This document shows, in pieces, positions 19,249-63,986 of a stretch of DNA of 64,000 nt (positions within the stretch are counted from its first letter, which is position 1; each line of letters starts with the position of its first letter). The position numbers and the translations under genes are program-made. The DNA comes from Escherichia virus TH42. The notes beneath the pieces are model-generated. The model did no database searches. It was not told the DNA's origin and saw nothing but the letters and a program-made list of their open reading frames with translations. The DNA is taken from sequence record MT446413.1; one strand, written 5' to 3'.

Positions 19249-19327
<79 letters not shown>

Positions 19328-27129: not shown

Positions 27130-27180
27130 AGATCACATCTTATCATAGTGATTCGACGTGTCAACAACTATTTTTCGATT
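27130..27180 (-). promoter_or_regulatory. sigma70-type promoter (leftward, weaker -10)
   Basis: On minus strand: -35 TTGACA (27159-27164), 16-bp spacer, -10 TAAGAT (27137-27142). Confidence 0.35.
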
Positions 27181-27225
27181 AATGCATCTTGATAAACTAG
27201 CGACCATTGAGGCCGCTAACCTACC

Positions 27226-27465
27226 TTAGTTCATACGTTTAAAGGTTAAATCTTTATCCGTACTTACCAGCGATAACACCGCGATAGATTTGCCATTGTC
27301 GGCATCAGCTATCATTTCTTTCGCTTGCTGTAACGTGCTACCGACTATTCTCATAATCATGTTAGTAACGTTAATGCTAGTGCAAGTGATTTGCGTGTCT
27401 TTGCTTGAGAAGGTGTAAATGTTCATGGATAAATCCTCATTATGGCATGGTTGGGAGTTTATCAA
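27226..27465 (-). CDS. hypothetical protein
   Basis: 79 aa ORF, TTG start. Confidence 0.35.
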   Translation of the reverse strand: MINSQPCHNEDLSMNIYTFSSKDTQITCTSINVTNMIMRIVGSTLQQAKEMIADADNGKSIAVLSLVSTDKDLTFKRMN

Positions 27466-27928
27466 GATACACTAATCGAATTTTTAAAGAGCTAGTAAAC
27501 AAAGTTTGCCTTGAGAGAATCTAGTACACTGTTAAACGCTGATTTCTTTGAAGTATCGACCTTATAGGCCGCCAAATCCACGCATGAAAGAGGAATCGAC
27601 TAGGATAATCAACTAAGTGCCTTATAGTAATGACGCTTGTTAGCACCACTCCTAAGCAAACCTTGTTTTTAAAGAGCAAGGCTAAAAGTCTAGCCTATCA
27701 GGCTTGTTACCGACTGCATAACTAAACCTGAGATTCAAATATAAATCTATCAAGCAAAGAAAGCAATACCTTTTTCTAAAATAATTTCACTTTCTTTTAG
27801 GTATAGATGAGCACGCGCACGAATAACATCAGGGGAGGAAGAAAACAAGCCTTATAATCGAAAATAAGGCATACAGGAGGCGTTCTAACGAGCTAAACAG
27901 GGGCAAGATGTGCAATCACCTTAGAAAT

Positions 27929-27953
27929 GAAAAAAGCGCCTCAAAAGGGCGCT
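27929..27953 (-). terminator. intrinsic terminator (minus strand) after 27974..28315
   Basis: Minus-strand AGCGCC-CUUUUGA-GGCGCU then UUUUUUCAUUU. Confidence 0.5.
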
Positions 27954-27973
27954 TAGGAAGTCTTACGGGTTGG

Positions 27974-29536: not shown

Positions 29537-29824
29537 TTCATTAATCCTTTCGGTTGATGTGAACTGCAAACTACAGTCGCAACTATATATTAAAGGAAAA
29601 ACATGTCAACCACTTATTTTCAAACTATTTCATAACTCATTGAATCTAAAAGGAATTTAATTTACTAAACTTTCTTACTCAGAGGTACAGCTTACTAACA
29701 GAATGTTACTTTATAACGCTTATAGAACGGGTAGCAGATCAACGGTAACGACAGATGGGTAGAACGTGCCGCATAGGTTAGCCAATGGGTAAGAAGCCTA
29801 ACGAGGAAGGGGAAACGGGTAGGA

Positions 29825-29835
29825 TATAATGTAAG
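29825..29835 (+). promoter_or_regulatory. TATAAT / TAATGTA-type promoter element in control region
   Basis: ggaTATAATGTAAG: TATAAT 29825-29830 overlapping TAATGTAAG 29827-29835. Confidence 0.3.
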
Positions 29836-30059
29836 TTAGTTACAGGTAACAGGTCAGACCATGCGGGAGTTAATTACCAGTCAAATAATTTACTCAAACA
29901 ACAAAAGAAAAAGACCAACAGCACGCTGAAAAAGAAAAAGATTAAAAGAAAGGATTAACATAATCACTTAAGTAAACAATAACCAGTCTAAACATACATA
30001 CATCAATAATCCACTCATAAATAATCACATAAGTTATTACATTCAAACTATGGGGAGTG

Positions 30060-30082
30060 TGTGGGTTGATATAATTGCATGG
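30060..30082 (+). promoter_or_regulatory. extended -10 promoter (rightward)
   Basis: TGaTATAAT at 30067-30075. Confidence 0.4.
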
Positions 30083-30544
30083 TGTTACCATGTGGGTATC
30101 ATTAATGTTCTTACTATTAATACCGGTTAGTTATAGTCTTCTATTAGTATGCCTGTACAGTACATCAGAGTCTAGCCTTTCATCCCTTCTCAACATGAGT
30201 AAGAGAAATACGGGTAGGAAATCACTGGTTAGATATACATGGGTAGATTCGCATTACTAGATAATGCTCATGGGTAAATAATGCATGTCTAATATCAATG
30301 GGTAGGGTATTTATGGGTAGGTGTGCCACTGAACGCAGATAGGGCAAGGCTTAGAGCTTAAAGGCTGATTGATTTCCTAAAGGCGATTGCATTCCCTATA
30401 ACCCTTTTTTAAATGAGGACTCCCCCTTTTACCAAAACACGCTCGGAGGGGCTAGGTCCACTCGGTCAAATCAGAATTTTAAACCCTTATATATAACTAT
30501 ATGCCCCAACGTTAGTTGTGGATTTAAGAGTGAGGAACAACTTT

Positions 30545-30709
30545 ATGTGGAAATTGAAGATGATTATCAGGCAGATTAAATGTAATCACGAGTACTACCC
30601 AATCCGGATATCGAGAGGTGATGAACGGTTACATGCTTATTACAAGAGTACATGGAGGTGTGCAGATTGTGGTAAGGTTAAGAATAGTAAATGGGTGGAT
30701 AGGCCTTAA
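30545..30709 (+). CDS. small zinc-ribbon protein
   Basis: Start at ATG (MWKLKMIIRQIKCNHEYY...RCADCGKVKNS) with GAGG SD; track ORF begins at GTG 30518. Confidence 0.35.
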   Translation: MWKLKMIIRQIKCNHEYYPIRISRGDERLHAYYKSTWRCADCGKVKNSKWVDRP

Positions 30710-30831
30710 CATGACATGGCCTTTATGAAGTCCCCTTTACATCAGCGTACATGGGTTCATACATGGGTGGGCCTTTAGATGAGTAAGCCTTTATGGGTTG
30801 ATCACTCTCGTTTATCAGAGGAGATATAAAA

Positions 30832-31080
30832 ATGATTCTAGACTTTTTATCAGAGCTGCTTCCTTACTTCCGCACTGAAAGATGTGCATTTGTATTTGAT
30901 GAAGGGGAGGAGGTATTGAGTTGTTTGGGTAGATTAGTAGACCTAGATGACGATGAAGATTTTGATGCTACGATGGATATTAGTTCATTGGGCTGGTTGT
31001 ACATGAGATGCTTTGTAACCTACAAGGCTGAGACGTTTAAAGACTATCGTTATAACACGGAAGGAGAGAATGATGAATAA
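30832..31080 (+). CDS. acidic hypothetical protein
   Basis: 82 aa ORF; DLDDDEDFD tract. Confidence 0.4.
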   Translation: MILDFLSELLPYFRTERCAFVFDEGEEVLSCLGRLVDLDDDEDFDATMDISSLGWLYMRCFVTYKAETFKDYRYNTEGENDE

Positions 31081-31726
31081 TATGACAGGAACTAATACAC
31101 TGAATGCAATCTACGAGAACATGGGATGTAAAGGCGAGGTTGTTTACAATGGTAATCTCCGTCCCTTATCAGAGGACACTCTCTATCTGAATCGTGTTCA
31201 TGAAACCACTGGAGGTAAATCCCGAGTTGAGATGGTAAAACAATTGGCTCATGGTTCTGTGTATGGTCATGCTCCTTCAACCCGTGAACTATGGGAAAGT
31301 TTGATTCCTCGTACAGAAGCTAAAGATGTGAAAGATTATTTTACTGTAGCAAAAGAAGTTAAACGCAAGTGTCCATCCAATTTAGAAGTTGTTCCGTATG
31401 TATCTGACAAACATGCACACCTACCGGATTATGCCCGTGAGATGATTGAGATGATAGAAGAAGCTGAGTATGAAGCTCTGAATAATTATTTAAATTCGAA
31501 AGATCAGTGGTCACGTAATGTAGTAATTGATGAAGAAGGTAATGAAGTAGTTACGTGGGTACATGCTAGTGAACAAGCTCTGGACCCCGAGCTTGAAGAA
31601 TACAAAAAATTTTTGGCGTCCTCTTCTTTTGATGTAGAGAATGACAAATCTGTTCCAGTGACTTGGGAAGGTGAAACTGTAGCTCTCCAGACTTTGTTCA
31701 ACCTACACGTAGGTAATGTAGATTAA
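31070..31726 (+). CDS. hypothetical protein
   Basis: 218 aa ORF; intrinsic terminator follows. Confidence 0.5.
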   Translation: MMNNMTGTNTLNAIYENMGCKGEVVYNGNLRPLSEDTLYLNRVHETTGGKSRVEMVKQLAHGSVYGHAPSTRELWESLIPRTEAKDVKDYFTVAKEVKRKCPSNLEVVPYVSDKHAHLPDYAREMIEMIEEAEYEALNNYLNSKDQWSRNVVIDEEGNEVVTWVHASEQALDPELEEYKKFLASSSFDVENDKSVPVTWEGETVALQTLFNLHVGNVD

Positions 31727-31737: not shown

Positions 31738-31762
31738 GCCTCCTCTAGTGGGAGGCTTTTTG
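31738..31762 (+). terminator. intrinsic terminator
   Basis: GCCUCC-UCUAGUG-GGAGGC then UUUUUGUU. Confidence 0.5.
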
Positions 31763-31771
31763 TTATAACGA

Positions 31772-31780
31772 TAATGTAGA
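31772..31780 (+). promoter_or_regulatory. candidate phage-sigma-dependent promoter motif (TAATGTAGA)
   Basis: Matches TAATGTATA-like motif just upstream of 31792 gene start. Confidence 0.3.
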
Positions 31781-31791: not shown

Positions 31792-32259
31792 ATGTTTGGA
31801 GAAAAAGGAGAACTCACGCCTGCACAGGTAGCTGAGGTTACAGGAAGATTACCCGGTGTAACTGATGAATTGGAAAACCGTGGTATGGAGCCAAGCACAG
31901 GGAAGTTCCAAAAGGGAAATAAGTTCGGACGACCCAAAGGTAGTAGAGGTAAGTTGACACAGCTCATGTTGGACCGAGTTGCTTCAAGTCATCTGTCCCC
32001 TGATGAAGTGTTGATTCAAATTTATGAAGATCCAAATATTCCACCTGATCTTAGATTCAAGGCTGCAAGTAAAGTTGCAGATCTGGTATATCCGAAGGCA
32101 GCTTCTGTTGAGATTAAGATTGAGGAAGAGAATGTAATTAATGAAGATTCATTGAACGCACAAATCAAGGACTTCTTGGCTGGAGCATTAGGTGCAGATG
32201 TGCTACCTCCAGAGGACTCTGAGGACGCTGAAAAGGAGGAGGAAGCGGACGAGAGTTAA
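31792..32259 (+). CDS. candidate terminase small subunit
   Basis: 155 aa; immediately upstream of terminase large subunit; acidic C-terminus; assignment by position only. Confidence 0.4.
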   Translation: MFGEKGELTPAQVAEVTGRLPGVTDELENRGMEPSTGKFQKGNKFGRPKGSRGKLTQLMLDRVASSHLSPDEVLIQIYEDPNIPPDLRFKAASKVADLVYPKAASVEIKIEEENVINEDSLNAQIKDFLAGALGADVLPPEDSEDAEKEEEADES

Positions 32260-33934: not shown

Positions 33935-36178
33935 ATGGCTAAGAAGAAATTTAGTGAAGATATTTTGGATGAATTACGCGTTGACCTTCAACGTCGATTC
34001 AATTATGCACAAGGTTATGTAGACCTCGCTGTAAAAGGTTATTCTCGTGAAGCATGGGAATACTTCTACGGAAACTTACCAGCTCCAGTAACTGCTGGAA
34101 GCTCTAGTTGGGTAGATCGTACAGTATGGGAGTCTGTTAACGGAACTCTCCAAGATATCATTAACGTATTCTGTTCAGGCGATGAAGCGGTGACGTTTGT
34201 TGCGGACAACCAAGCAGATTCGGATGCAGCTGATGTAGCAACTAAGCTGGTAAACCAAATCTTGCTTCGTGATAATCCGGGATATAACATCATTTCCTCA
34301 GCGGCTCAGGAATGTCTGGTTACACGTAACTCTTTTATCAAATACTATTGGGATGAACAAACCTCCACTCAAACAGAAGAGGCTGAGGGCGTACCTCCAG
34401 AAGCTTTGGCTGCATACGTACAAGGTATGGAAGCAGGCGGACTTCAAGATTTAGAAATCTTTACCACTGAAAACGATGATGGAACAGTGGATGTTAAAGT
34501 AACTTACAAACAAACAGTAAAACGTGTTAAAGTAGAATATGTTCCTTCAGAGCAAATCTTTGTTGATGAACATGCTACCTCTTTTGCAGATGCTCAGTAT
34601 TTCTGTCATCGCACACGTAAATCTAAAGATGATTTATTAGCAATGGGCTTCCCTAAAGACGAGATCGAAGCGTTTAACGACTGGACTGATACAATGGACA
34701 CCACTCAGTCTACAGTTGCTTGGTCACGTACTGACTGGAGACAGGACATTGATGCAGACATTGGTGTGGACACTGAAGATGTGGCTTGCATGGTTTGGGT
34801 TTATGAGCATTACATCCGTACAGGTGTATTGGATAATAACAAAGAATCTAAACTCTATCAAGTAATCCAAGCAGGTGAGCATATTCTCTCTTGTGAAGAA
34901 GTAACTAGCATTCCGTTTGTTACTTTCTGTCCTTACCCTATTCCGGGTTCCTTCTATGGTCAATCCGTGTATGACATTACTAAAGATATTCAAGACCTAC
35001 GTACAGCACTTGTCCGTGGTTACATTGATAACGTTAACAACGCAAACTATGGTCGATATAAAGCCATTGTAGGAGCCTATGACCGTCGTTCTTTACTAGA
35101 CAACCGTCCGGGTGGTGTAGTTGAAATGGAGCGTCAGGATGCGATTGATCTCTTCCCTTACCACAACCTACCTCAAGGTATTGATGGTCTGTTAGGAATG
35201 TCTGAAGAGTTGAAAGAAACTCGTACAGGTGTTACTAAACTTGGTATGGGTATTAACCCTGATGTATTTAAGAATGATAACGCATATGCAACCGTAGGTT
35301 TAATGATGAATGCTGCACAGAACCGTCTCCGTATGGTCTGTCGTAACATTGCTCATAATGGTATGGTTGAATTAATGCGTGGTATTTACAACCTTGTCAG
35401 AGAAAATGGTGAAGTTCCTTTACAGGTTCAAACCCCTCGTGGCATGGTTGAAGTAAATCCTAAACAATTACCAGCTCGTCATAATTTACAAGTTGTTGTA
35501 GCTATCTCTCCTACTGAGAAATCAGAACGTGCACAGAAACTGATTAGCCTGAAGCAATTGATTGCTGCTGATGCTCAGCTTGCACCTCTCTTTACTCTGG
35601 AGCAAGATCGTTATATGACTGCACAGATCTTTGAGTTGATGGGTATTAAAGACACTCATAAATATCTTATGCCTCTTGAACAGTATCAACCTCCTCAGCC
35701 TTCTCCGATGGAAATCCTCCAGCTCGAGATGACTAAAGCTCAGGTTGAGAACGTACAGGCTTCTTCTCAGAAGATGATTGCTGATGCATTCGACCAGCGT
35801 GAACGTACTACGTTTGAACAGCAGAAAGCTGCGGACGAGTTCAGCTTACGTCAAGAAGAATTGCAATTCAAGCAAGAGAATGCTGCTGATCAGATGACTC
35901 TTGAAAATCGTAAGGAAGATAACTCAGCTACTCTTGAACAAGCTAAGCATAAGCTTTCTCTCCTTCAGCAACAGGTTCGTCAATATGAATCTATACTGAA
36001 AGAACTTCAGATGACTATGAATCATCAGGTTGATCTTGAGAAGGTAGACCAGCAAGCTAAAATTCAAGATAAGACTTTGGAACTCCAAAAGAAAGAAGCA
36101 AATGAAACTAAGAAAGAACAACAAAGTTCTCTCAAAGATTCTAGGATTCCTAATAGAAAGCTTGGTAGTAGAAAATAA
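33935..36178 (+). CDS. portal protein
   Basis: 747 aa; position between terminase and scaffold; coiled-coil C-terminus. Confidence 0.55.
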   Translation: MAKKKFSEDILDELRVDLQRRFNYAQGYVDLAVKGYSREAWEYFYGNLPAPVTAGSSSWVDRTVWESVNGTLQDIINVFCSGDEAVTFVADNQADSDAADVATKLVNQILLRDNPGYNIISSAAQECLVTRNSFIKYYWDEQTSTQTEEAEGVPPEALAAYVQGMEAGGLQDLEIFTTENDDGTVDVKVTYKQTVKRVKVEYVPSEQIFVDEHATSFADAQYFCHRTRKSKDDLLAMGFPKDEIEAFNDWTDTMDTTQSTVAWSRTDWRQDIDADIGVDTEDVACMVWVYEHYIRTGVLDNNKESKLYQVIQAGEHILSCEEVTSIPFVTFCPYPIPGSFYGQSVYDITKDIQDLRTALVRGYIDNVNNANYGRYKAIVGAYDRRSLLDNRPGGVVEMERQDAIDLFPYHNLPQGIDGLLGMSEELKETRTGVTKLGMGINPDVFKNDNAYATVGLMMNAAQNRLRMVCRNIAHNGMVELMRGIYNLVRENGEVPLQVQTPRGMVEVNPKQLPARHNLQVVVAISPTEKSERAQKLISLKQLIAADAQLAPLFTLEQDRYMTAQIFELMGIKDTHKYLMPLEQYQPPQPSPMEILQLEMTKAQVENVQASSQKMIADAFDQRERTTFEQQKAADEFSLRQEELQFKQENAADQMTLENRKEDNSATLEQAKHKLSLLQQQVRQYESILKELQMTMNHQVDLEKVDQQAKIQDKTLELQKKEANETKKEQQSSLKDSRIPNRKLGSRK

Positions 36179-36424: not shown

Positions 36425-37503
36425 TGGCAAATGAATTTTTAGACCCAAACGATTTTAAATCATTCCTCCAACTTGATGACTTGAAAGGATCTTTTAAAGA
36501 AGACCTAAGTCGATTAGAATCTGAACAAGAACCAGAAGTGGACATTGACAGTGAGTTTCCAGAAGATACTGGAGATAACTTTGACTTTGATTCCGACCTT
36601 CTCGGTAAGGGTGATGAACTCACGTTCGAAGATGAAGAAGGATGGGATGATTCAGAAGAGGAAGGAGAAGACGATGAAGGTGATTCAGACGACGACTCTG
36701 ATGAAGTTGTTGAAGATGAAGAACCAAGTGATGTAGATCACGATGATTCTACTGACAGTGAATACGAAGAAGGTGACGCTTTCGACGTAGATTATGAAAC
36801 TGTTATCACCCTTCCTGATGGTCGTGAGATGACTATTGAAGAGTTATCAAATGGCTATGTTACTGGCTCCGATATGACTGAACGGGAAGCTGTTCTTCAG
36901 CGTCATGTTGAAGCTTTTGAAGAGCGTGTAGGTGGTTTAGCGGATGTATTAGAATTAGCGTCCTTAGAAGCAGACCGAGTAATTGAAGATTATAACGGTT
37001 TTGATTGGGACAAGCTAGCAGTTGAAGATCCACAAGCCTATGTTGAAAACAAACGCTTTTTAGAGAAGTACACTGCTCGTCGTCAGCAGCTTGAACAAGC
37101 GCAAGTTAAGATCAAGCAAGATGCAGCAGCAAAAGAACAGCAAGCCTTCCAAGCTAAATGTACCGAATGTGTTAATGTATTGAAACGTGAAATTCCTAAT
37201 TGGGATGACAGTGTTTATCAGAATCTGATGCAATATGCAATTGATCTCGGTGCTACAGAAGAAGAAGTCTTGAAAGAGAATCGTCCGTCTATTTTCCTAG
37301 CTTTGCACAAAGCATACCAATTCGATAAAGGTAAGCAACAAGTAATGGCTAAGATTAAACGTCCGGGTTCTCCACGTAAGGTTGTGAAGTCCGACTCTTC
37401 TAAGTCTCGTACTTCCAATACGCCAGACAACGCTAAGGTTGCCAAGGCATTTTCAGAGGGTCGAATTCGTCACGAAGATGCATTTAAGTATCTCGTAGAT
37501 TAA
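36424..37503 (+). CDS. scaffolding protein
   Basis: 359 aa; extremely acidic N-terminal half (poly-D/E), helical C-terminus; directly upstream of capsid gene. Confidence 0.5.
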   Translation: MANEFLDPNDFKSFLQLDDLKGSFKEDLSRLESEQEPEVDIDSEFPEDTGDNFDFDSDLLGKGDELTFEDEEGWDDSEEEGEDDEGDSDDDSDEVVEDEEPSDVDHDDSTDSEYEEGDAFDVDYETVITLPDGREMTIEELSNGYVTGSDMTEREAVLQRHVEAFEERVGGLADVLELASLEADRVIEDYNGFDWDKLAVEDPQAYVENKRFLEKYTARRQQLEQAQVKIKQDAAAKEQQAFQAKCTECVNVLKREIPNWDDSVYQNLMQYAIDLGATEEEVLKENRPSIFLALHKAYQFDKGKQQVMAKIKRPGSPRKVVKSDSSKSRTSNTPDNAKVAKAFSEGRIRHEDAFKYLVD

Positions 37504-39405: not shown

Positions 39406-39467
39406 GAACTGACCTAGGTTCTACAGTGTTCAAAACTTACACCATTAAATCTGGTGCTTAAAACTAA

Positions 39468-39492
39468 GGCTGCCTTCGGGTGGCCTTTTCTC
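39468..39492 (+). terminator. intrinsic terminator after capsid/Ig-like ORF
   Basis: GGCUGCC-UUCG-GGUGGCC then UUUUCUCAUUUU. Confidence 0.55.
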
Positions 39493-39519
39493 ATTTTAAG
39501 ACCCTTATAAGGAGATATG

Positions 39520-39528
39520 TAATGTATT
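39520..39528 (+). promoter_or_regulatory. candidate phage-sigma-dependent promoter motif (TAATGTATT)
   Basis: TAATGTATA-like motif ~35 nt upstream of 39562 gene, just after capsid terminator. Confidence 0.35.
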
Positions 39529-39561: not shown

Positions 39562-40308
39562 ATGGCAATGCCTGAAGTTCAGTATCCTATCAATACCTAT
39601 GGCTGGCTTAAAAAGGCTGTGTCACTCTGGGCCGATAGGGATGATGGTGAATTTGTAGATCAAATTCCAAACTTTATTAACTTTGCAGAGAAAGAAATCT
39701 ATCGTAACTTACGAATCCCTCCTCTGGAAAAAGAAGTATATTTAGATATCAAGGATGGTATTGCTTTTATCCCTCCTGACTTTTTAGAAGCACAGTGGAT
39801 TATGAGAGCTTCAAATGGAATGATGTTCAGAGTAACCTCTCCTGAAGAACTTGACTGGTTGAAGAGAAATAACTCAGTCAACCCATCCAATTGGAATCAA
39901 GGGGAAGTTGTTTTTGCTCGTTTAGGTAGTCGGTTTATGTTCTACCCTCTAATTGATGCAGATACTCCTGTTTATCCTGATGATGGAGCACCTGAAATCC
40001 CTGCTGAGAATGCTGTAGTTTTAAGTTATTATGCAGACCCACCGGAGTTCCACTCTGATGAAGATACCAGTGCTATTCTAACTATTGCTCCTGAGCTGCT
40101 TCTATATTTTACTCTGCGTCATGCTTCTTTATTCGTTCAAGATGATAATGGAGTTCAAAAGTGGTCAGCACTTGGTAAAGCAATCCTTGACGAGATTGTG
40201 GAGCAGAGTAAGAAAGCAGAATACTCAGGTTCCCCTCTAGTAATCCCTAATACTATTAGCCGTCTTAATAGCTCACGAGAAGTGTACGGCATTCGTAGAT
40301 ACAGATAA
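39562..40308 (+). CDS. virion structural protein (head-tail joining or tail tube candidate)
   Basis: 248 aa ORF between capsid and tail fibre genes. Confidence 0.45.
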   Translation: MAMPEVQYPINTYGWLKKAVSLWADRDDGEFVDQIPNFINFAEKEIYRNLRIPPLEKEVYLDIKDGIAFIPPDFLEAQWIMRASNGMMFRVTSPEELDWLKRNNSVNPSNWNQGEVVFARLGSRFMFYPLIDADTPVYPDDGAPEIPAENAVVLSYYADPPEFHSDEDTSAILTIAPELLLYFTLRHASLFVQDDNGVQKWSALGKAILDEIVEQSKKAEYSGSPLVIPNTISRLNSSREVYGIRRYR

Positions 40309-52749: not shown

Positions 52750-53799
52750 ATGTCTTTATTCGGGTCTGCTTCTAAGACTAAAACTACAGTGGCTCCATCC
52801 TCTCAGGTTGATGCTCTGTTAAAACAGATTGTGGCTAATGCTCAGAATATGAACAGCAATGATGCTGGATTTATTTCTCAGCAACTAGCTGGCCTTAACC
52901 CTAACCAACAAGCTGCTCTATCTAACTTAGCTAACTCTTCCACCTTGAATCAACTGAGTAATATGTACACTCCTCGGACACAACAAGGTCTGGATCAGAT
53001 GAACACTTTGGCTCAGAGATATCAAGACTTGGCTAATAGTTCAATCAGTGCTAGTGATGTTAACAAGTTCAGTTCTGGTCTAAACAATTCTGCACTGGCT
53101 CAGGCAACAGGAAAGGCTGCATCTAACGTATCTCTTGGTAATGGTTCTGATTCAGGATCTCTTCGTAGGGCTGCTGCTCAGGGTGCTGCTTTGAATTCTG
53201 CTAATACCAACCTGTCTCGTACTATCTCTGGTAAGAACTTAGGTGTTGACGCTTTAAGATCTAACAGTTCCTTCCAGCAAGGCCTTCTGAACGCACAAAC
53301 AGGGTTGGCTGGACAAAACCTTAACCTCGGCTCTCAAGGCACTCAGGCAGCTCAACAGGCTATCCAGAATCAACTTACTGCTGGTAACTTACAACAGCAG
53401 CAAGATCAGACTCAAGCTGACCTTAATTGGCAGAATGCTATTGGTAGTCAACAGTACGGATGGAATCAACTCAACAACCAATTAAATGTATTAAACTCAG
53501 TAAGCCCTATGGCTGGTTATACAATTACTAATAAAGGAGCCTCTCCTAACACATCCCAGCAAATTCTTGGTGCTGGAGTGACTGGTCTAGGTATTGCTGG
53601 TAGATTGGGTGCTTTCACTCCTAGTCAACAAACTCAGAATGCTTGGAACTCTTATAATGCTTCGGGTGGTCAATCTGGTATGGCTGGTCCTATGATCGGT
53701 GGGTCTAACCTATCCAATCAGAGTAATCAGAATAACTGGTTGTCTACAGCTGGGAGTAATATTTTGGGTGGTGTTCTAGGTGCCTTCGGGGCAAACTAA
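52750..53799 (+). CDS. internal virion protein (Q/N/S/A-rich)
   Basis: 349 aa low-complexity protein in internal-protein block. Confidence 0.45.
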   Translation: MSLFGSASKTKTTVAPSSQVDALLKQIVANAQNMNSNDAGFISQQLAGLNPNQQAALSNLANSSTLNQLSNMYTPRTQQGLDQMNTLAQRYQDLANSSISASDVNKFSSGLNNSALAQATGKAASNVSLGNGSDSGSLRRAAAQGAALNSANTNLSRTISGKNLGVDALRSNSSFQQGLLNAQTGLAGQNLNLGSQGTQAAQQAIQNQLTAGNLQQQQDQTQADLNWQNAIGSQQYGWNQLNNQLNVLNSVSPMAGYTITNKGASPNTSQQILGAGVTGLGIAGRLGAFTPSQQTQNAWNSYNASGGQSGMAGPMIGGSNLSNQSNQNNWLSTAGSNILGGVLGAFGAN

Positions 53800-54796: not shown

Positions 54797-56428
54797 ATGC
54801 AACAAACATCTTACGCGTATCTTCGTAGTCAAGACCCGCGAAATCAGATTTATGGTGATCGTCAGAGAGGGGTTACGGCCTCTCCTTACATGTCCAGACC
54901 TGCTGGTCCAGCAGCTGACTTATCTATGTATCAGCGTCCAGCTCTTCCTGCTGTCTTAGGAGCTACAGTTGAACAAGCACAGGCTGACCAAGAAGCTATG
55001 ATGAATCCGGGATTCAAGCAACGTCTTTATGAACAGCAGGGTATTTCCACTCCTACTAGTTTGGCTGGTATTGATGCTGGCATTAATCCGGGTGATGAAG
55101 GCTCTATGATGCCTGCTGATGTAGCTCCTGCTTCTAGCCCTCTTCCGGTTACAGCTCCTGCTAAACCAATTGAAGAGTCGGATAAAGAGTTTGCCCCTGA
55201 ACAAGTACAACAGGCACAAGGTGTCATGAATACTATCGCTTCTGGTGTTCCTCAGGGTGAAGGTATGAGTGGTGCTACTCGTGCTGCTGACCAAGAACGT
55301 GTGAATCAGGATATTCTTAAAGTTGCACAATCTAAGAACCCGGCAGATGCGTGGAAGACTATGCAGAAACAGCCTTTCTATCAAAACTCTAGTTTCTATA
55401 CAGGATTGATGGGTGTGGGTCTTTCTATTATGTCTGGTAAATCTCCGATTGAAGCATTCCAGATTGGCTCTGGTATGGCATCTCAGGATGAAGCTAAACA
55501 ACAATTAGAACTGAACCGTGATAACCTGATCGAACAAGGTTACTCTCAGGATTCTGTAGCTGCTGCTGTAGCTGCTGGTGACCCTTCTCTTCTGAAGATG
55601 CGTCAGATTAGTCCTCAAGAGAAGATGGCTCTAGCCGCTCAAGATGAAGCTCGTGCTAATCAAGAGTGGGATAGACGTCAACAGATTCAAGAGAATTCGA
55701 TGCGGGAACGTGCTGCTGAAACCCGTCGTGCTGCTGAACAACGTGCTGATGCTCAGTTTGAGAAGCAGAAAGAGTTGATTGGTTATCGTGATCAAGTTAA
55801 GGCAGACCGTGCAGAACAAGCTGCTCAAAGTTTTAACTTTAACCCGAAAGAAGTTCGTCTTGCTCAGAACACTGCTGAAGGTACGGTTGCTAAGCAATGG
55901 GCAGAGAAGGCAGGACTGTTTAACCAGTCTCATAAAGACTTGGATTTGGCAGACAAAGCAGTTAAGGATGGTGATTATCAGACTGCTCGTTCTGCGTACA
56001 TGCAGGCTATCATGAACTCCGCGAGAGCTGAGATTGGTGCTAACCGTTCTCTGCAAGCTGATGACTTGTCACACTTCGCAGAAGACCCATCCATTCTTGT
56101 TAAGGTAGGTAACACTTGGTCTCTTAAAGCTGGTTATCGTCCATCCGATGCCGCTCTTTCCTATGCCCGTAAGCAAGCAACTGTTGGTGCTTCTTCTGCT
56201 GAGAAAGGTGTTAAGGATTCTAAGAAAGCAACTATTGAAGCTTATGTTGGTTCTGGTATGGACAAGAAACGTGCAACTGCTCTTGTTAACCGAGCTATTC
56301 CTTCTGCTGGTTTCTATGACCCTCTCGGTGTATTCGAAGCAGAGTCTGAAGCAGCTGTTGGTGGTTCAGCAACCAATCCTAAACTTAATGGTGCTTTGTC
56401 TTCTAACACTGATTGGATGACTCAGTAA
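54797..56428 (+). CDS. internal virion protein
   Basis: 543 aa ORF. Confidence 0.45.
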   Translation: MQQTSYAYLRSQDPRNQIYGDRQRGVTASPYMSRPAGPAADLSMYQRPALPAVLGATVEQAQADQEAMMNPGFKQRLYEQQGISTPTSLAGIDAGINPGDEGSMMPADVAPASSPLPVTAPAKPIEESDKEFAPEQVQQAQGVMNTIASGVPQGEGMSGATRAADQERVNQDILKVAQSKNPADAWKTMQKQPFYQNSSFYTGLMGVGLSIMSGKSPIEAFQIGSGMASQDEAKQQLELNRDNLIEQGYSQDSVAAAVAAGDPSLLKMRQISPQEKMALAAQDEARANQEWDRRQQIQENSMRERAAETRRAAEQRADAQFEKQKELIGYRDQVKADRAEQAAQSFNFNPKEVRLAQNTAEGTVAKQWAEKAGLFNQSHKDLDLADKAVKDGDYQTARSAYMQAIMNSARAEIGANRSLQADDLSHFAEDPSILVKVGNTWSLKAGYRPSDAALSYARKQATVGASSAEKGVKDSKKATIEAYVGSGMDKKRATALVNRAIPSAGFYDPLGVFEAESEAAVGGSATNPKLNGALSSNTDWMTQ

Positions 56429-56448
56429 GACCTAAGTCCTATCTCTTA

Positions 56449-56457
56449 TAATGTATA
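56449..56457 (+). promoter_or_regulatory. candidate phage-sigma-dependent promoter motif (TAATGTATA, exact)
   Basis: Exact TAATGTATA 37 nt upstream of the 1472-aa gene start. Confidence 0.4.
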
Positions 56458-56493
56458 TAGGAGGTAGGACATTTTTATTTATAAGGAGAAATT

Positions 56494-59400
56494 ATGGCTA
56501 ACTTAAAACCGTGGGAAGAAGCTTCTAAAAGCCCTGCGTATTTGAATGCCTCCCCTGAGCAACAGTCTCAGATGCGAGAACAGTATAAAGCAGCGGGTGG
56601 AACGATTCCTGAGGCTGCTCCAGCTCCTAAACAAGAAGAGCAACCGGGGTTGGTTGGTGATTTTGCCCAAGGTGTGTCCAACGCTATTCAATCAGGTGGT
56701 GCAAACATTGCAGCTAGTGCTGCTAGAGGTATTGGTGGATTAGTTGAGATTGGAGAAAATCTAGCTGGTACACAGACAAGTTATGGTAAGCGTATTCAAG
56801 ACAACTCTAAAAACTTACTAGAAGAACGTCTTTCTCAAATCGAAGATGGTGTAGGTAAATCTGTAGGTCAGTATGCTGGCGTTGCCGCTGATATCGGTCT
56901 TACGGTCGCTAACCCAGCTGTAGCTGCTGCTGTTATTGCAGCTCGTGAAACAGGTAGGGCTTATGCGGACCAAACTCCAGAAGAGGGTGAAGAGAAGTCT
57001 GTTCTTGATGCTGGTCTAGTTGGTGGTGCTAACTTTGCAGCTCAGAAGATTCTTCCGGGGATGACAGGAACTGCTTCTACTACTCTAGGTCGTGTTGGTC
57101 AGAGTGTAGCATCTAACGCAGTGGCTGGTGCTAAAGGTGGTGCTCTTGTAGGTGCTGCTGAAGCACAGAACAAATATGGTGATGACACTACTCTTGCTAA
57201 CATTATTGAAGGTGCTGTAGAAGAAGGTGCGATGGGTGCTGCTTACGGTGGGGCTATCGGTGGGGTTCATGGATTGATAAGTCGTCCTAGTCCTCAAGTC
57301 TTTGACCGTACTCCAGAACACGTTAAGACTGACATTGCCGCTGAAGATGAAGCTATTCGCTCAGCTAAAAATGCAGACGAACTAAGAGAGGCTTACTCTA
57401 AAGCTGATAACGCTAACACAGCTTCCGCTCTTAACCTCCTCGATGAGAACGGTTTCCGTGTTACTGATGCTGTGGCTATGGACTCCCCTGCTGCTCAGCG
57501 TATCCTTAATACTGATCAAAGTCGTGCTGAGAAGGCTGCTACTATTCTGGAAGATCGTTCTAATGTTCCGGGTTTAAATCCTCTTGCTGCTCCTAATAAA
57601 AAGCAAGGTAAAGCTAACGCAGACAACGAACATAACCAGAAACAAGCTGTGGCAATGAAAGATGCAATGGCTGATTATACAAAAGACAACACTAAATCTC
57701 TGTCTGATGTTCTGGATAATCTTGATCGTGAATTAACAGCTGCTCGTGCCAGTGGTGATTTTACTGGTAGTGCTATGGACATTAAGAATCGTACCCAAGC
57801 AGATCGTGATTTCATTGATGCTTATAAAACTTTCTATAACGAAGCTAATCGATTCAAAGCTCGTGATGGTGAAGACTTTAATAACTTCATAGAGAAAGCT
57901 ACAGAGCTTCAGAAACTGGCTGATAATGTATCTCCAGAAATGAAAACTGCTATTGGTGGTTTGAAGAAACTTAAAGGAATGCCTGAAGGTTTCAACCCAA
58001 TCCAAGATGCTTTCACTCTGAATAATACAGCTAAGTTAATGAGTAATCAAGACCGTGGTTGGACTTCTCTGACTGCTGATGGTTTTAAAGAAGCTGCTCC
58101 TCCAGTTCTGATTAAGAATCCTCTTGGTGCTGCTAAGCATGTTCTTAACCGTTTCCGTTCTGACCGTGCTCGCTCTCAACGCGAAAGCCAGCAGGCTGCT
58201 AACAGTGAAGCTATTCGTTCTCTTGCTCGTAGTGATATGGAAGTAACTCGTGCTCGTGCTCAGGCTGATGAAGCCCGTGCTGCGATGGAGAAAGAACCTG
58301 AAGTTGATGACATTAAATTTAAGACTCAAAATGACACGGAAATCGAACCGGTTCGGGAGCCTTCTGCTACTACTGTGACGGAAGAAATTTCCTCTCCAGA
58401 AACCTCTCCTTTAACTGCTCGTGATTTGGTCGCACAGAGACGTGCTTTGAAGGAAGCTGAAGCTAGACGTCAAGAAGCCGAAGCTAATAAGGTTCAGGAA
58501 GAACCAACTCCAGAGCCAGTTCCACAAGAACCAGTTACTACCGCAAGGGATTTAGTTGCCCAGCGTCGTGCTGTTGCAGAAGCTCGTAAACGTCAAGAAG
58601 CAGAAGAGGCTAGCAAGGCTGCTGAGAGCGTTCCTGAGGAGCCTACCGTTCAAGCCGAGCCATTACCTACCCGTGCTCCTAAAGCTCCTGAGATTGAGCC
58701 TGAGCCTGTTAAACCAGCTACTGGAATAGAACGTCTAGCTGCTATGTCAAGTGCTGCCCGTCAAGCTACTAAAGATCGTGCAGATCGCTTTGCTCGTTCC
58801 CTGTATACGGCAGGTGCTAAGGCTAAAGCCACAGCGGAGAATTTCCTTTCTTATAAAGGTGACCCGAAAGAGTTGATGCGTCGTATCCGTCAGGAAGACC
58901 AAGCTAACAACGCTGAACGTCATGCTGAGATGGCTCGTAACCAGCTTGCTTCTCAACAGGGTATTGCTGCTGCTAAGTCACAACGTGTTCGTTCTTCGTT
59001 TGCTGATTGGGTTAAGGAACGTGGTCTACCTTCTGATATTGCTACCAAGGCATTACGTGCTGAGGAGAAAGGTATTGGTGGGAACGTGACTAGTCTGGAT
59101 TCACTGAAGCGTAGGTCTGAACGTCTGTATCAGAAACAGCGCGATGATGAATTTAACAAGATGTATGAAGAAGCTCTTGCAGAGAATAAGAAGCTTGATA
59201 AAGCTGATGCTCCTAAACTGGTTGACCAGAAGAAAGAGTTACACAGCGAAATCAATTTACTTCTTGATGCAGAGCCATTACGTCCAGCTCAAAAAGATGC
59301 TATGCGTAAGTTGATGGAAGACTTTGTAGATGGGAAGTTTAAAGCTTCAGAGAAGGCTGGAAGGGAAGATGCTTTGGAAGTGGGACAGATGAAGGATATA

Positions 59401-60912
59401 TGGGATGGATTCATTAACACATATAACCGTGAAGTTAACATGTTCAACAAAGCTAATAAGAACTCTCAGTACGAAGCAGCAGCTAAACATTTGCAAGCAC
59501 GTCAAGAACGTCTTGAGACGCTCCGTAACAGAGCTAAAGCTCGTAGTGATGCCAAGGCAGCAATAGAGACAGAAAGACAGTCTCTCGAGGCTATAGCGGC
59601 TCAGAAATCGGAGATGGAGAACCTGTTGAAAGATTTACCAGAGTCGGTACGTGAGTCTCAGGAAGGTCGTACACTGAAACAGTTAGCAGCTCACCACGAT
59701 AAGAACTCTCCTGTACCACCGGAGCGTTTCCGTAGTATTATCGAACGTATCCACAACGCAGAAAGTGATTACATTGACCGTAAGCGTCGTCTCACTGAAG
59801 CGGAAGAAGATGCTCGAGAAGCTAAGTGGAATAAGATGTATGAACAGGCGGAAGAGATGAACCGTAAATACGACATTGATTCCCGTGTACAACGTGACAA
59901 GAAGCTCAAAGAAGCTCAGGAAGCAGAGAACGATCGCATGGCAATACAACGCCAACGTGATGACATTCATAAGCGCCTGATGCGTTCTATGGAGGATAAA
60001 GGGATTCCTAAAGAAGATGCAGAAATCTTTGCAGGTTCTTATATGGATAACCGTTACTCTCTTCTGGAGAAACCTATGACTCCTACTGAGCACCAGAATG
60101 CTCGTTCTCGTATTGAATCGGATATTTCAAAGTTTGCTAAGGATTTTGAGAAGATGACACCAATCGAGAAAGATATTGCTAAGGCAACTGGTGATATGGA
60201 TGGGAAGGTAGAGGTGGATGCAGACACTTCGAAAGCTATCGAAGATGCGAAGAAGGTAGATTCTGAGTTGAAGAAACTTCAGGATGAGGAGTTGGAAATG
60301 GAGAAAGTTCGTTCGGCATTGCCAGAAGATGAAAGATCTCAAGCCTCCTCTGATATACTGGAAAGCATTAAGAAGCAGGAAGATGACTTTGCTAACAAAG
60401 CAGAGAAAGCTTTTATCGAAGGTAAAGACTTGCAGGAACTGGCTAGTGTAGCAGAGGTTCTAGATAGAGTTCATGGTGCTGACAAGGCTGGTAACAACCG
60501 TCGCTTTGTACGTGCATTACAAACTGCTGCGGAGAACAAGAAACAGTATGGGGATAATCCAGTGGCTTGGTTTAGTGCTGATGACTATTCTGCTATTGCT
60601 AAACTTGGGGCTGCTTCAGCGGGTGGTAACAAATCTAGAGCACTGGAGAAAATCTTTGGTTCTACTGCTGAACAAGCTAAAGGGAAACTTTTAGGGCGGG
60701 ATGATGTAGCGAAGATTAGACGTGTGATTGAAGAGAATCCTGATGTTAAGATCCCTTCTTACAAGACAACTACTCGACAAGAGTATTTACAGTTCTTGGA
60801 GAAGTATAATGACGAGGGAGAGTTGAAAGTCAAACGTGGTTCTCTGTCTGACAAGTTGGAGAGAAGTAAGCGTCAAGCTAAACTCCGTGTTAGAGTTCGA
60901 GCTAAGGAGTAA
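56494..60912 (+). CDS. very large virion protein (internal core/ejection protein or tape-measure-like)
   Basis: 1472 aa, Ala/Glu/Lys/Arg-rich with long helical repeats; TAATGTATA motif upstream; bidirectional terminator downstream. Confidence 0.55.
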   Translation: MANLKPWEEASKSPAYLNASPEQQSQMREQYKAAGGTIPEAAPAPKQEEQPGLVGDFAQGVSNAIQSGGANIAASAARGIGGLVEIGENLAGTQTSYGKRIQDNSKNLLEERLSQIEDGVGKSVGQYAGVAADIGLTVANPAVAAAVIAARETGRAYADQTPEEGEEKSVLDAGLVGGANFAAQKILPGMTGTASTTLGRVGQSVASNAVAGAKGGALVGAAEAQNKYGDDTTLANIIEGAVEEGAMGAAYGGAIGGVHGLISRPSPQVFDRTPEHVKTDIAAEDEAIRSAKNADELREAYSKADNANTASALNLLDENGFRVTDAVAMDSPAAQRILNTDQSRAEKAATILEDRSNVPGLNPLAAPNKKQGKANADNEHNQKQAVAMKDAMADYTKDNTKSLSDVLDNLDRELTAARASGDFTGSAMDIKNRTQADRDFIDAYKTFYNEANRFKARDGEDFNNFIEKATELQKLADNVSPEMKTAIGGLKKLKGMPEGFNPIQDAFTLNNTAKLMSNQDRGWTSLTADGFKEAAPPVLIKNPLGAAKHVLNRFRSDRARSQRESQQAANSEAIRSLARSDMEVTRARAQADEARAAMEKEPEVDDIKFKTQNDTEIEPVREPSATTVTEEISSPETSPLTARDLVAQRRALKEAEARRQEAEANKVQEEPTPEPVPQEPVTTARDLVAQRRAVAEARKRQEAEEASKAAESVPEEPTVQAEPLPTRAPKAPEIEPEPVKPATGIERLAAMSSAARQATKDRADRFARSLYTAGAKAKATAENFLSYKGDPKELMRRIRQEDQANNAERHAEMARNQLASQQGIAAAKSQRVRSSFADWVKERGLPSDIATKALRAEEKGIGGNVTSLDSLKRRSERLYQKQRDDEFNKMYEEALAENKKLDKADAPKLVDQKKELHSEINLLLDAEPLRPAQKDAMRKLMEDFVDGKFKASEKAGREDALEVGQMKDIWDGFINTYNREVNMFNKANKNSQYEAAAKHLQARQERLETLRNRAKARSDAKAAIETERQSLEAIAAQKSEMENLLKDLPESVRESQEGRTLKQLAAHHDKNSPVPPERFRSIIERIHNAESDYIDRKRRLTEAEEDAREAKWNKMYEQAEEMNRKYDIDSRVQRDKKLKEAQEAENDRMAIQRQRDDIHKRLMRSMEDKGIPKEDAEIFAGSYMDNRYSLLEKPMTPTEHQNARSRIESDISKFAKDFEKMTPIEKDIAKATGDMDGKVEVDADTSKAIEDAKKVDSELKKLQDEELEMEKVRSALPEDERSQASSDILESIKKQEDDFANKAEKAFIEGKDLQELASVAEVLDRVHGADKAGNNRRFVRALQTAAENKKQYGDNPVAWFSADDYSAIAKLGAASAGGNKSRALEKIFGSTAEQAKGKLLGRDDVAKIRRVIEENPDVKIPSYKTTTRQEYLQFLEKYNDEGELKVKRGSLSDKLERSKRQAKLRVRVRAKE

Positions 60913-61925: not shown

Positions 61926-62771
61926 TTATTCCCAAGATTTATCTAACCACGACCAATCAAAGAGGTCGCCTTCAGCTTGTCCAACGAAGAGCAATCGAGC
62001 ATTTTCTAACATCTTAGCTTCTGCTTCTTCCTCGAACCTCTTATAGTATTCCATTCGTATAATATGATAAAGAGTCCACTTATCGAATACCTTCTCAATA
62101 AGTTTGATAGCAGCTTTGCTACCAATACCCTTACGACGCATAACTAAGTTACCGCCCCACATCATTTCAACTTTCTCACCACATCCGGGGATGTTATCTG
62201 TACTGTCTCCAATCAACATCTGATAGAAGAAGTTCTGCCATGCTACTTCCTCTGATACGTAATGAGGGGGTACTTCTTTCTGTCGTTCACCGCAAGCCCA
62301 GCGGTAATGCCATCCGGGAGTGATTAACAAATCCTTATCACGAGTACAGATGATTGTGTTCTTTTCTATACGCTGTCGTTCAGCGAGTGCATCATCTGCT
62401 TCTCTACCAAACACCTCAACGTACTGATAATGTTCTTTGATGTAATCACTAACGTTCTGCCAGTGATGTGGTCTTTCTCCCGGAGGTCGGTTAGCTTTGT
62501 AACCTTGTTGCTGAGCAATATCAAATCGGAAGTTACCACCTTCACTAAAATAGAAGACAGTTCTTTCACAACCAGCTCTTGAGATGATTACATCAATCTT
62601 ATGTTGGAGACGTTCAATCAAGAATCCATAATCAACTGGAACACGACCTGTGTCTAGGAAAGGATGCTCTTGTGTAAGAGCACCAACTTCATACCTAAGA
62701 ACATCTGCATCCACAATTGCTACTTCAGGATAGATTACATCAGGCATAGAGATCTCTCCGTGTCTGTGCAA
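61926..62771 (-). CDS. 5'-3' exonuclease (T7 gene 6-like, FEN family)
   Basis: 281 aa; IVDADVL, YKANR, FGREADD, CTRDKDLL, GDSTDNIPGCG motifs. Confidence 0.8.
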   Translation of the reverse strand: MHRHGEISMPDVIYPEVAIVDADVLRYEVGALTQEHPFLDTGRVPVDYGFLIERLQHKIDVIISRAGCERTVFYFSEGGNFRFDIAQQQGYKANRPPGERPHHWQNVSDYIKEHYQYVEVFGREADDALAERQRIEKNTIICTRDKDLLITPGWHYRWACGERQKEVPPHYVSEEVAWQNFFYQMLIGDSTDNIPGCGEKVEMMWGGNLVMRRKGIGSKAAIKLIEKVFDKWTLYHIIRMEYYKRFEEEAEAKMLENARLLFVGQAEGDLFDWSWLDKSWE

Positions 62772-63336
62772 TACTGTATTCTAAATACTCCACCGCCTCT
62801 TCTACAGAACAATCATTAAAGAGAAGGTAGGTTGAAAGGTTCGCGCCTTCAATATAGGAACGAGAGTCTCCTTCAAAAGTACAGCCATCACGATGAATCT
62901 GAATTACTCGAACATGGAAATGTTTTTCCAGTTCTTCAACTTCTGCTTTAAATCCACCATCAGAGAATACAATAACATCATTCTGTGTTGGGATGCGTTG
63001 TTGAATACTGCTAACAGCAAGCTTACCCATGCAGGTGTCACCAAACATTGGTTTCAGGTAGTTCTCACTAGTCGCAATCATTAAATCTCGAACTGTCTTA
63101 CCGCCCCATTCAGGACGGCTATATTCTTTCCACTCACGGTCGTTGTATAGCTCCATGAACTCATAAAGAGGAAGTCCTAATGCAGCAGCAGCCACTCGAT
63201 ACATAGGCTCCTTAAAAGCCTTTACATGCGGTCTAAACTCAGTGTTACCGACGGTCTTCTCTAACCAAGCATTAGCGATTGTATCTTTACCACAACCCGG
63301 TGGTCCATTCAGAATTACTACTAACGGTTTACTCAT
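62740..63336 (-). CDS. P-loop nucleotide kinase (dNMP kinase-like)
   Basis: 198 aa; Walker A GPPGCGKDT near N-terminus, size and pattern of phage dNMP kinases. Confidence 0.6.
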   Translation of the reverse strand: MSKPLVVILNGPPGCGKDTIANAWLEKTVGNTEFRPHVKAFKEPMYRVAAAALGLPLYEFMELYNDREWKEYSRPEWGGKTVRDLMIATSENYLKPMFGDTCMGKLAVSSIQQRIPTQNDVIVFSDGGFKAEVEELEKHFHVRVIQIHRDGCTFEGDSRSYIEGANLSTYLLFNDCSVEEAVEYLEYSIAQTRRDLYA

Positions 63337-63986
63337 TATTGAATCATCCCTTGAAGATCTTCTTTATCAAAGTGCTTCTCTACTACAGCTTCATACAGAT
63401 CACGATTCTCTGCATAACGGCGATAGAAGGTTCCGTGTGAAATTCCTAACTGCTGCTGAATATGATCATGAGGAATTCCAAGGAAGAGCATAGAGAACAT
63501 GCTTGCCATTTTCTTGGTATCCATAATATCACTTAAGTCTTGGAAGAAGAAAAAGATTCTAGATTCCAAGAAGGGGTCTCCAGTAGAGTCATGCTTATCC
63601 ATCGCAATCTCTAAAGGACTTTCCCATGAGTTCATCTCAGGAGGTCTAAACATATCAGCCTCTGGAATAGAGTAGATACGTCGATCTCCAACTGTCTGAC
63701 GGTTAGAACGAATAGACCAGATGATATTCTTAACACGATAAGTCATGTGTTCAATATCTTTTTCATCAGTGAGCAGAAGTTCTTCTTGCTTTGCAAACAC
63801 AAAACGCCAAGCGTTCAGTAACACTTCCTGAGCAACATCCTCTGCTTCGTGATAATCTTTAATGTCATACATGAAATAGCGATGCACAACTTTCCAGTTC
63901 TCTCGATAGAATTCATCGAAGGTTGGATAATATTTAATAGGAATGCCATGAATACGATAGCGTGTGGGTGTTGTCTTCTTCTTCAT
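63336..63986 (-). CDS. ECF-like sigma factor
   Basis: 216 aa; region-2-like [18 protein letters not shown] and C-terminal [16 protein letters not shown]. Confidence 0.55.

Follow-up and report, generated by a model that had tools for sequence, protein, structure and literature searches.

Phage phiEco32 encodes a sigma factor, gp36, which binds Escherichia coli core RNA polymerase and directs initiation at its own promoters (PMC12276001, PMC8948821). Six such promoters have been described, upstream of genes 6, 13 and 26 (late) and of genes 40, 58 and 68 (middle), which share the single consensus tAATGTAtA and start transcription 6-8 bp downstream of this element; similar sequences are present at the expected locations in every phage of the phiEco32 subgroup (PMC8948821, PMC4331800). 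gp36 co-purifies with polymerase from infected cells, and is the sigma subunit of an open complex solved by cryo-EM on the E. coli enzyme (PDB 9m7y), the promoter in this complex being P68, that of gene 68 (PMC12276001). In the structure, published in 2025, the N-terminal domain resembles sigma2 and the C-terminal domain sigma4, with the first helix rotated by ~70 degrees and a short alpha4, and the core AATGTA is centred at -11.5 with further contacts at -37 and -34 (PMC12276001). A second phiEco32 protein, gp79, activates the gp36 holoenzyme while inhibiting those formed with sigma70 and sigmaS (PMC12276001).

Phage T4 offers a parallel to the system proposed below, in that host core polymerase is redirected by a divergent sigma-like protein together with a small factor removing sigma70 region 4 from the flap (gp55/gp33; AsiA/MotA), although the two systems have no sequence relationship. 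In T4, sigma70 is remodelled by AsiA, which stabilises no phage sigma factor, and gp55 lacks a sigma4-like domain. Promoters of bacterial ECF sigma factors carry AAC in the -35 and CGT in the -10 element. A comparison of gp36/gp79 with AsiA/MotA has already been drawn (PMC12276001). Salmonella phage 7-11 also possesses a sigma factor, gp47, encoded at the same genome position and serving late genes from similarly positioned promoters, but gp47 shares ~15% identity with gp36, its promoter reads GTAAtg-(16)-aCTA, and the phage has neither a gp79 homologue nor a middle class (PMC8948821).

Here we analysed a stretch of 64,000 nt, hereafter the window, from Escherichia virus TH42 (MT446413.1). A 2-kb query around its predicted sigma factor gene matched 68 phage records, the best being TH34 (98.2% DNA identity), Bas88 (96.4%) and ECBP2 (95.2%); in several of the matched records the gene is annotated as 'RNA polymerase sigma factor' or 'ECF sigma factor'. 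The best-matching phages are of the Kuravirus type, with 95-98% DNA identity to the window, and TH34 and the relatives of ECBP2 are classified in Gordonclarkvirinae. The window corresponds to a phiEco32-like podophage, and its gene order is that of phiEco32:

1 to ~29.6 kb, minus strand: leftward genes, corresponding to phiEco32 genes 68-128
30.8 to 60.9 kb, plus strand: rightward late genes, corresponding to phiEco32 genes 1-26
61 to 64 kb, minus strand: leftward genes, corresponding to phiEco32 genes 27-36

Past its right edge lie ~13 kb of the ~77-kb genome, with genes 37 to ~67. The window is clearly a member of the phiEco32 subgroup and not of the 7-11 subgroup; it differs from phiEco32 in its control region, where the sequence separating genes 128 and 1 is unrelated over ~650 bp.

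Within the first block of leftward genes, we also observed a tRNA-like gene of 79 nt (19249-19327, minus strand), at roughly the map position at which relatives possess a canonical tRNA-Arg(UCU). Its anticodon loop reads CUUCUAA, a 4-nt stub replaces the D arm, and the extra arm comprises 20 nt; the gene scores 36.4 bits in Rfam and is rejected by ARAGORN, is 100% identical in phage HC-25922, and is ~86% similar to 'tRNA-OTHER' elements of phi92-like and many other phages. Also in this block, positions 25690-27970 are almost free of ORFs and contain dispersed repeats, the phiEco32 counterpart being an annotation gap (72786-74731).

The original prediction placed a 216-aa sigma factor ORF near the right end of the window, and this was confirmed with the correction that the gene lies on the minus strand, in the middle-gene cluster:

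63336-63986, minus strand: phage sigma factor gene, orthologue of phiEco32 gp36, 216 aa, ATG start (from the ORF list, PDB 9m7y_F and PHROG 1740)

The start codon is backed by an alignment with gp36 from residue 1, and the stop codon has one base in common with the ATG of the dNMP-kinase gene that follows (TAATG). The neighbourhood of exonuclease, dNMP kinase and sigma factor genes is shared with phiEco32, except that no gene 35 separates the kinase from the sigma factor in the window and that the kinase is shorter, at 198 aa against 297 aa in phiEco32. Chain F of PDB 9m7y (gp36), an entry named 'RNA polymerase ECF sigma factor', matches residues 1-215 of the ORF (phmmer E 4.9e-119), with a global identity of 81% over 214/216 aa and a 2-aa insertion in the window protein after residue 118. 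PHROG 1740, 'RNA polymerase sigma factor', matches as well (E 2.9e-44).

We subsequently mapped the published gp36 contacts with the clamp helices, the -10 and -35 elements, the flap tip helix and gp79 (residue list from PMC12276001) onto the window protein, and found 22 of 23 positions to be identical and one conservatively replaced. Identical residues include the clamp-helix contacts D44, E47, E49, D50 and E54, the -10 readers E79, H80, Y83, R84, W90, S91, S94 and N95, and the -35 readers Y186 and R187 of gp36, which correspond to Y188 and R189 owing to a two-position shift. The grooves for the flap tip helix and gp79 are also kept, M138 to L being the sole change. Judged from its sequence, in which all testable defining features were found, the protein belongs to the gp36 family.

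Profile searches gave a less uniform picture of the two sigma-like segments that had been proposed. Region 2 is weakly detectable, with Pfam Sigma70_r2 (PF04542) matching residues 26-61 (E=5e-4, 20.3 bits against a cut-off of 24), TIGR02937 reaching 21.2 bits against a cut-off of 42.9, and several NCBIfam ECF models matching residues 22-63, all far under their cut-offs. Region 4, by comparison, gave no Sigma70_r4 or r4_2 match in the HMM search of the ORF, and a C-terminal sigma4-like fold is instead suggested by gp36, which is 81% identical and of known structure (PMC12276001). From this identity, a two-domain sigma2 plus sigma4 architecture would follow for the window protein. This predicted small architecture and the weak region 2 similarity are likenesses to bacterial ECF (group 4) sigma factors; however, the protein falls under every curated threshold, has no anti-sigma partner but a co-activator of the gp79 type, and would act at promoters of the form TRRNA-N19-AATGTA rather than of the AAC/CGT type. 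Furthermore, the gp36 promoter is read as AATGTA in a partly double-stranded state (PMC12276001). As neither the curated ECF thresholds nor the ECF promoter type apply, the label 'ECF-like' given to the protein in the original prediction would hold for its predicted architecture only.

An orthologue of the second phiEco32 factor was also identified by sequence alignment:

6403-6645, minus strand: orthologue of phiEco32 gp79, 80 aa, 80% identical

Its N-terminal hydrophobic residues corresponding to those in contact with gp36 are either kept (L9, M14) or conservatively replaced (L6 to I, V10 to I).

For the promoters, we took the phiEco32 positions from the literature (PMC4331800, PMC8948821), extracted the six regions and aligned them to the window. 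The regions of P6, P13, P26 and P68 align at 80-88% identity with an invariant motif, such that 4/4 phiEco32 promoters falling within the window have a counterpart at the orthologous position:

31749-31780, plus strand: predicted late promoter, orthologue of P6, with TGGGA at 31749-31753, TAATGTAGA at 31772-31780 and a predicted start at ~31787
31792-32259, plus strand: gp6-like gene downstream of the P6 orthologue, its ATG ~5 nt past the predicted start
39497-39528, plus strand: predicted late promoter, orthologue of P13, with TAAGA at 39497-39501, TAATGTATT at 39520-39528 and a predicted start at ~39535
39562-40308, plus strand: gp13-like virion gene downstream of the P13 orthologue
56426-56457, plus strand: predicted late promoter, orthologue of P26, with TAAGA at 56426-56430, TAATGTATA at 56449-56457 and a predicted start at ~56464
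56494-60912, plus strand: gp26-like gene, 1472 aa, downstream of the P26 orthologue
266-297, minus strand: predicted middle promoter, orthologue of P68, with TGGTA upstream of AAATGTATA at 266-274 and a predicted start at ~259
228 down to 1, minus strand: gp68-like gene downstream of the P68 orthologue, cut by the window edge

All four motif strings named in the original prediction, at 56449, 39520, 31772 and 29827, are present on the plus strand, and its account of a phiEco32 sigma factor with a conserved promoter element is borne out by the literature (PMC8948821, PMC4331800). Their reading as late promoters holds, base for base in the alignment, for 31772 (P6), 39520 (P13) and 56449 (P26), at distances of 12, 34 and 37 nt, respectively, from motif to next start codon, but found no support at 29827 (see below). 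Neither the P68 orthologue nor the gp79 orthologue had featured in that account.

The 35 nt surrounding the P68 orthologue are identical to phiEco32, and the site is kept in 5/5 relatives; the P6 orthologue is kept in phiEco32 and Ec3, and the P13 orthologue retains its core in five relatives with a diverging spacer. At P13 the window also departs from phiEco32 in possessing TAATGTATT, in which T replaces an otherwise invariant A at position 9, and TH43 possesses TAATGTACT at this site; given these variants, promoter strengths may differ. Orthologues of P40 and P58 would be located beyond the window; among related genomes, the P40 orthologue of Bas88 carries an exact TAATGTATA, and the P58 orthologues of Bas88, TH34 and TH43 fit the strict two-part pattern described next.

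The four predicted motifs might alternatively represent chance A+T-rich words in an A+T-rich genome, unrelated to the sigma factor, and raw counts are in keeping with such a reading. With up to one mismatch, TAATGTATA occurs 20 times in the window against 19.45 expected, and as this is no enrichment the bare 9-mer count was dropped as evidence; seven further matches with up to one mismatch sit within genes, and 7 of the 8 in-gene matches alignable to phiEco32 or Ec3 have lost the core in these diverged relatives. The shorter TAATGTA is found 17 times, compared with 10.1 +/- 3.1 expected, a marginal excess reached by 2 of 100 shuffles, and is co-oriented with transcription in 15 cases and anti-oriented in 2, a modest sense-strand excess (p ~0.012, codon-shuffle null) with no significant antisense depletion under the same null. 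Against chance, however, three of the four motifs and the site at 266-274 (minus strand) align exactly with experimentally mapped phiEco32 promoters, and intergenic, co-oriented 9-mers with an intact core number 4 against an analytic expectation of 0.70 (Poisson p = 0.006). The six aligned phiEco32 promoters also have in common a T at -38, purines at -37 and -36, and an A at -34 (6/6 each), an upstream TRRNA element that lies exactly 19 nt from AATGTA in all six and in the four window orthologues; this element is our own reading of the alignment, published contacts and mutagenesis covering only -37 and -34, on P68 alone. The two-part pattern TRRNA-N19-AATGTA occurs five times in the window compared with 0.84 expected (0/100 shuffles reach 5), four of these matches being the orthologous promoters, while the same search with N18 or N20 spacing returned 0 matches. 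Furthermore, the cores of all four promoters are intact in phiEco32 and Ec3, genomes of 72-80% identity. The motif scan with strand and position tests that had been suggested as a check gives no enrichment for the raw 9-mer count, and an excess for orientation, intergenic position and the two-part pattern. At the sequence level, the motif signal comes from intergenic position and orientation, the upstream element, orthology to mapped promoters and conservation in diverged relatives, not from raw counts, and we consider an origin by chance very improbable. Less probable still is that the product of the ORF is a helix-turn-helix DNA-binding regulator, acting as a repressor or activator and not as a polymerase subunit. 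Such a protein might account for a weak TetR_N helix-turn-helix match (residues 176-201, E 0.22) and for sigma HMM matches that all remain under curated cut-offs, but it is at odds with 81% identity to a protein that was co-purified with polymerase and seen by cryo-EM as its sigma subunit (PMC12276001), and with the conservation of every acidic clamp-helix contact residue.

The remaining site of the original prediction requires separate consideration:

29827-29835, plus strand: TAATGTAAG, in the divergent control region; doubtful gp36 promoter

This site probably belongs to a conserved non-coding block of ~150 bp with another role, for example as a sigma70-type -10 element, a signal for packaging or replication, or a binding site for a protein, with the TAATGTA being incidental. 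It has two mismatches at positions 8-9 and an A where T-38 is invariant, and is overlapped by a perfect TATAAT. The nearest ORF is at least 240 nt away, and the first plus-strand gene annotated in relatives begins roughly 690 nt downstream (by coordinate offset from the Bas88 annotation). Positions 29740-29890 are conserved as a whole (>87%) in eight close relatives, which makes conservation of the motif itself uninformative. The region is not alignable to phiEco32, for which no promoter upstream of gene 1 is reported (PMC4331800). The site lies before the terminal repeat and ~630 bp before what would be the right physical end of the genome, judging from record ends and an annotated repeat in relatives. 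An Rfam search of the control region (29570-30850) returned no match. Conversely, a gp36 promoter at this site would be consistent with the intact AATGTA core and T-15 and with the presence of G-37, G-36 and A-34, including the two published contact bases; positions 8-9 also vary among true orthologues (P13: TATT, TACT), and the TATAAT has no accompanying sigma70 -35 hexamer. In addition, no other rightward promoter was found for the homologues of genes 1-5, a search of 29570-30830 having yielded no sigma70-like match on the plus strand, and on late concatemeric DNA a transcript from 29827 could read across the repeat into these genes. The site may be a late promoter that serves genes 1-5 by read-through of the terminal repeat in concatemers, although we regard its identity as a real gp36 promoter as doubtful, and favour the conserved block with another role.

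Closer examination of the three late promoter orthologues also revealed a recurrent association with terminators, a context shared with phiEco32 along with promoter position, core and upstream element. The P6 orthologue is directly preceded by a terminator hairpin (31738-31756) that overlaps the upstream element, the 3' arm supplying TGGGA, and another (39466-39487) is found just upstream of the P13 orthologue. At P26, the -10-like element TAATGTATA is itself contained within a terminator-like 15-bp hairpin (56436-56470; folding energy -21.2 kcal/mol, z -4.5), followed by the T-run ATTTTTATTT; as read from the alignment, the stem has five differences from phiEco32 and pairing is kept in 5/5. 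Since the predicted start (~56464) falls in the 3' arm, P26 transcripts would be without the 5' arm and might be expected to escape termination. With each late promoter following or sitting within an intrinsic terminator, the late region would be split into genes 1-5, 6-12, 13-25 and 26. The predicted P6 leader of ~5 nt, an arrangement also seen in phiEco32, has no Shine-Dalgarno sequence, which leaves translation of the gp6-like gene from this mRNA unexplained.

Extending the two-part pattern to phiEco32 yielded eight matches, comprising the six published promoters and two more, one internal to gene 23 and one in the spacer between genes 40 and 41. The orthologue of the former is the fifth match in the window:

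53461-53493, plus strand: candidate internal site TGGAA-N19-AAATGTATT, within the gp23-like ejection-protein gene, 319 nt before the gp24-like gene

This site may be an internal late promoter and is present in 5/5 relatives, although its conservation may reflect the protein alone, because the peptide WNQLNNQLNVLN fixes most of the bases. That the gp36 regulon of this phage group is larger than the six published promoters is conceivable, but in our view rather unlikely.

The second additional phiEco32 match (36681-36713, plus strand), outside the window, is a complete gp36-type site in antisense orientation, in a back-to-back arrangement with P40. Conservation extends over phiEco32, Ec3, Bas88, TH34, TH43 and SU7; the site has its upstream half in common with P68 and points towards ~160 nt of nearly invariant non-coding sequence. 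An Rfam search of the phiEco32 gene 40-41 spacer gave no match, the near identity of the sequences left an alignment fold without compensatory changes, and comparing the folding energies of the plus and minus strands did not favour either. 'Promoter' features annotated in SU7 were uninformative, being located at start codons in the leftward cluster with none coinciding with a gp36-type site. If active, the antisense site could give rise to a late antisense or small RNA opposing early-to-middle read-through beside the promoter of the sigma operon.

Taken together, these results make it very probable that the product of the ORF is a gp36 orthologue serving the phage as its own sigma factor, with promoters of the gp36 type and a partner of the gp79 type. 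The proposal that the phage redirects host polymerase with its own sigma factor is supported through an orthologue of 81% identity and through promoter orthology, with the amendment that the regulon would be middle and late, and not late alone. From the phiEco32 experiments we infer that the protein binds RNA polymerase and uses these promoters, as well as the timing and the role of the gp79 orthologue. Expressed from the leftward middle-gene cluster, the sigma factor would take the place of sigma70 on the host core enzyme. Its sigma2-like N-terminal domain would bind the clamp helices and read AATGTA at -14 to -9, and its sigma4-like C-terminal domain, on the flap tip helix, would read the upstream element T-38, R-37, R-36 and A-34. 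The gp79 orthologue would displace sigma70 region 4, thereby shutting off host and early transcription, and would clamp the C-terminal domain of the phage sigma factor to stimulate initiation. Within the window, the resulting holoenzyme would start from the middle promoter at 266-297 (minus strand) and from the late promoters at 31749-31780, 39497-39528 and 56426-56457 (plus strand); the P40 and P58 orthologues, as middle promoters, are expected just past its right end. As P40 is located upstream of the sigma gene itself, positive autoregulation of the sigma factor might result.

For phiEco32, the sigma factor, its promoter consensus, the six promoter positions, the partner protein and the structure on polymerase are all published and already known, such that the biology outlined here is not new. 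The present analysis makes small additions, namely the fixed-distance 19-nt TRRNA element in the six published promoters, the terminators embedding or abutting late promoters, and the further candidate sites, which are testable refinements rather than surprises. Its value lies in functional annotation, providing for this phage a predicted sigma factor, an anti-sigma70/co-activator, four promoters with predicted starts, and the late transcription units.

An intrinsic-terminator hairpin was found to adjoin or enclose every late promoter in the window, namely the orthologues of phiEco32 P6, P13 and P26:

31738-31756, terminator hairpin adjoining P6
39466-39487, terminator hairpin adjoining P13
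56436-56470 (+), terminator hairpin at P26, 15 bp with a T-run directly after it

The P26 element TAATGTATA is located within the 15-bp hairpin, which has a predicted folding energy of -21.2 kcal/mol (z -4.5) and retains pairing at all five stem positions that differ from phiEco32. Given that the predicted P26 start lies in the 3' arm of the hairpin, RNA initiated at P26 would not form the terminator.

Two further matches to the motif of the phage sigma factor (gp36) were identified in the window:

53461-53493 (+), full match to the two-part gp36 pattern, inside the gp23-like ejection-protein gene
31714-31722 (+), exact repeat of the P6 nonamer, TAATGTAGA, located 58 nt 5' of P6

The first, a candidate internal promoter 319 nt ahead of the next gene, recurs in every one of the five relatives compared, among them phiEco32 (23005-23037). 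Most bases of this site are fixed by the peptide that it encodes, WNQLNNQLNVLN, and the match may therefore be a coincidence. The second, situated where the gp5-like gene ends and ahead of the terminator, is probably not a promoter, since no TRRNA element lies upstream of it and neither phiEco32 nor Ec3 has this copy.

Beyond the window, ~2.5 kb past position 64000 in the source genome, a candidate gp36-type site was also identified beside the middle promoter P40, in the spacer between genes 40 and 41. Its coordinates in two relatives are:

phiEco32 36681-36713 (+), full two-part match
Bas88 34346-34378 (+), full two-part match

The site, also present in TH34, TH43, Ec3 and SU7, comprises TGGTAGTAGATA-N12-AATGTATAT, with both promoter parts complete, and shares its upstream half with the middle promoter P68. 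It is directed rightward, back to back with P40 and antisense to middle and early genes. The ~160-nt spacer that it faces is nearly invariant across phage clades with gene identities of only 72-80%, and ends in a large hairpin resembling a leftward terminator. An Rfam search of the spacer matched no family, and no covariation was detected among the nearly invariant sequences compared. The site is not among the six published gp36 promoters, and the searchable literature yielded no mention of it.

Non-coding conservation was also evident around the 29827 site, a doubtful motif match in the control region:

29740-29890 (+), non-coding block of ~150 bp surrounding the 29827 site
29609-29582, leftward, strong sigma70-like promoter (TTGACA-16-TATAGT)

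The block, which lies between this promoter and the terminal repeat, is >87% conserved in eight relatives while its flanks diverge; it contains an inverted repeat (CCGCAT...ATGCGG) and had no match in Rfam. A separate region (25690-27970) is nearly ORF-free on the coding (minus) strand for ~1.5-2.3 kb, and carries dispersed repeats (e.g. TTGTTAAAGAGCG at 26504, 26732 and 27001) together with a 34-nt inverted repeat (27174-27207 / 27447-27480). Matching annotation gaps occur in phiEco32 (72786-74731) and Bas88 (70128-72281), and the region could represent an origin or a regulatory region.

Two further loci were noted, one of which is a tRNA-like gene:

19249-19327 (-), tRNA-like gene, 79 nt, Rfam tRNA 36.4 bits

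Its acceptor stem, anticodon arm (loop CUUCUAA; UCU, Arg) and T arm are normal, the D arm is replaced by a 4-nt stub, the extra arm is 20 nt long, and ARAGORN detected nothing here. Phage HC-25922 carries a copy that is 100% identical, and elements with ~86% similarity, some of them annotated 'tRNA-OTHER', occur in phi92-like phages and many others. In phiEco32 and Bas88, a canonical 77-nt tRNA-Arg(UCU) occupies approximately this place on the map, as judged from gene order without alignment. At the second locus (62740-63336 (-)), TH42 lacks gene 35 (annotated 'GTP-binding domain'), which in phiEco32 separates the sigma gene from the dNMP-kinase gene; the TH42 kinase comprises 198 aa compared with 297 aa in phiEco32. 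One base is common to the stop codon of the sigma gene and the start codon of the kinase gene (TAATG), an overlap which suggests translational coupling of the two genes.
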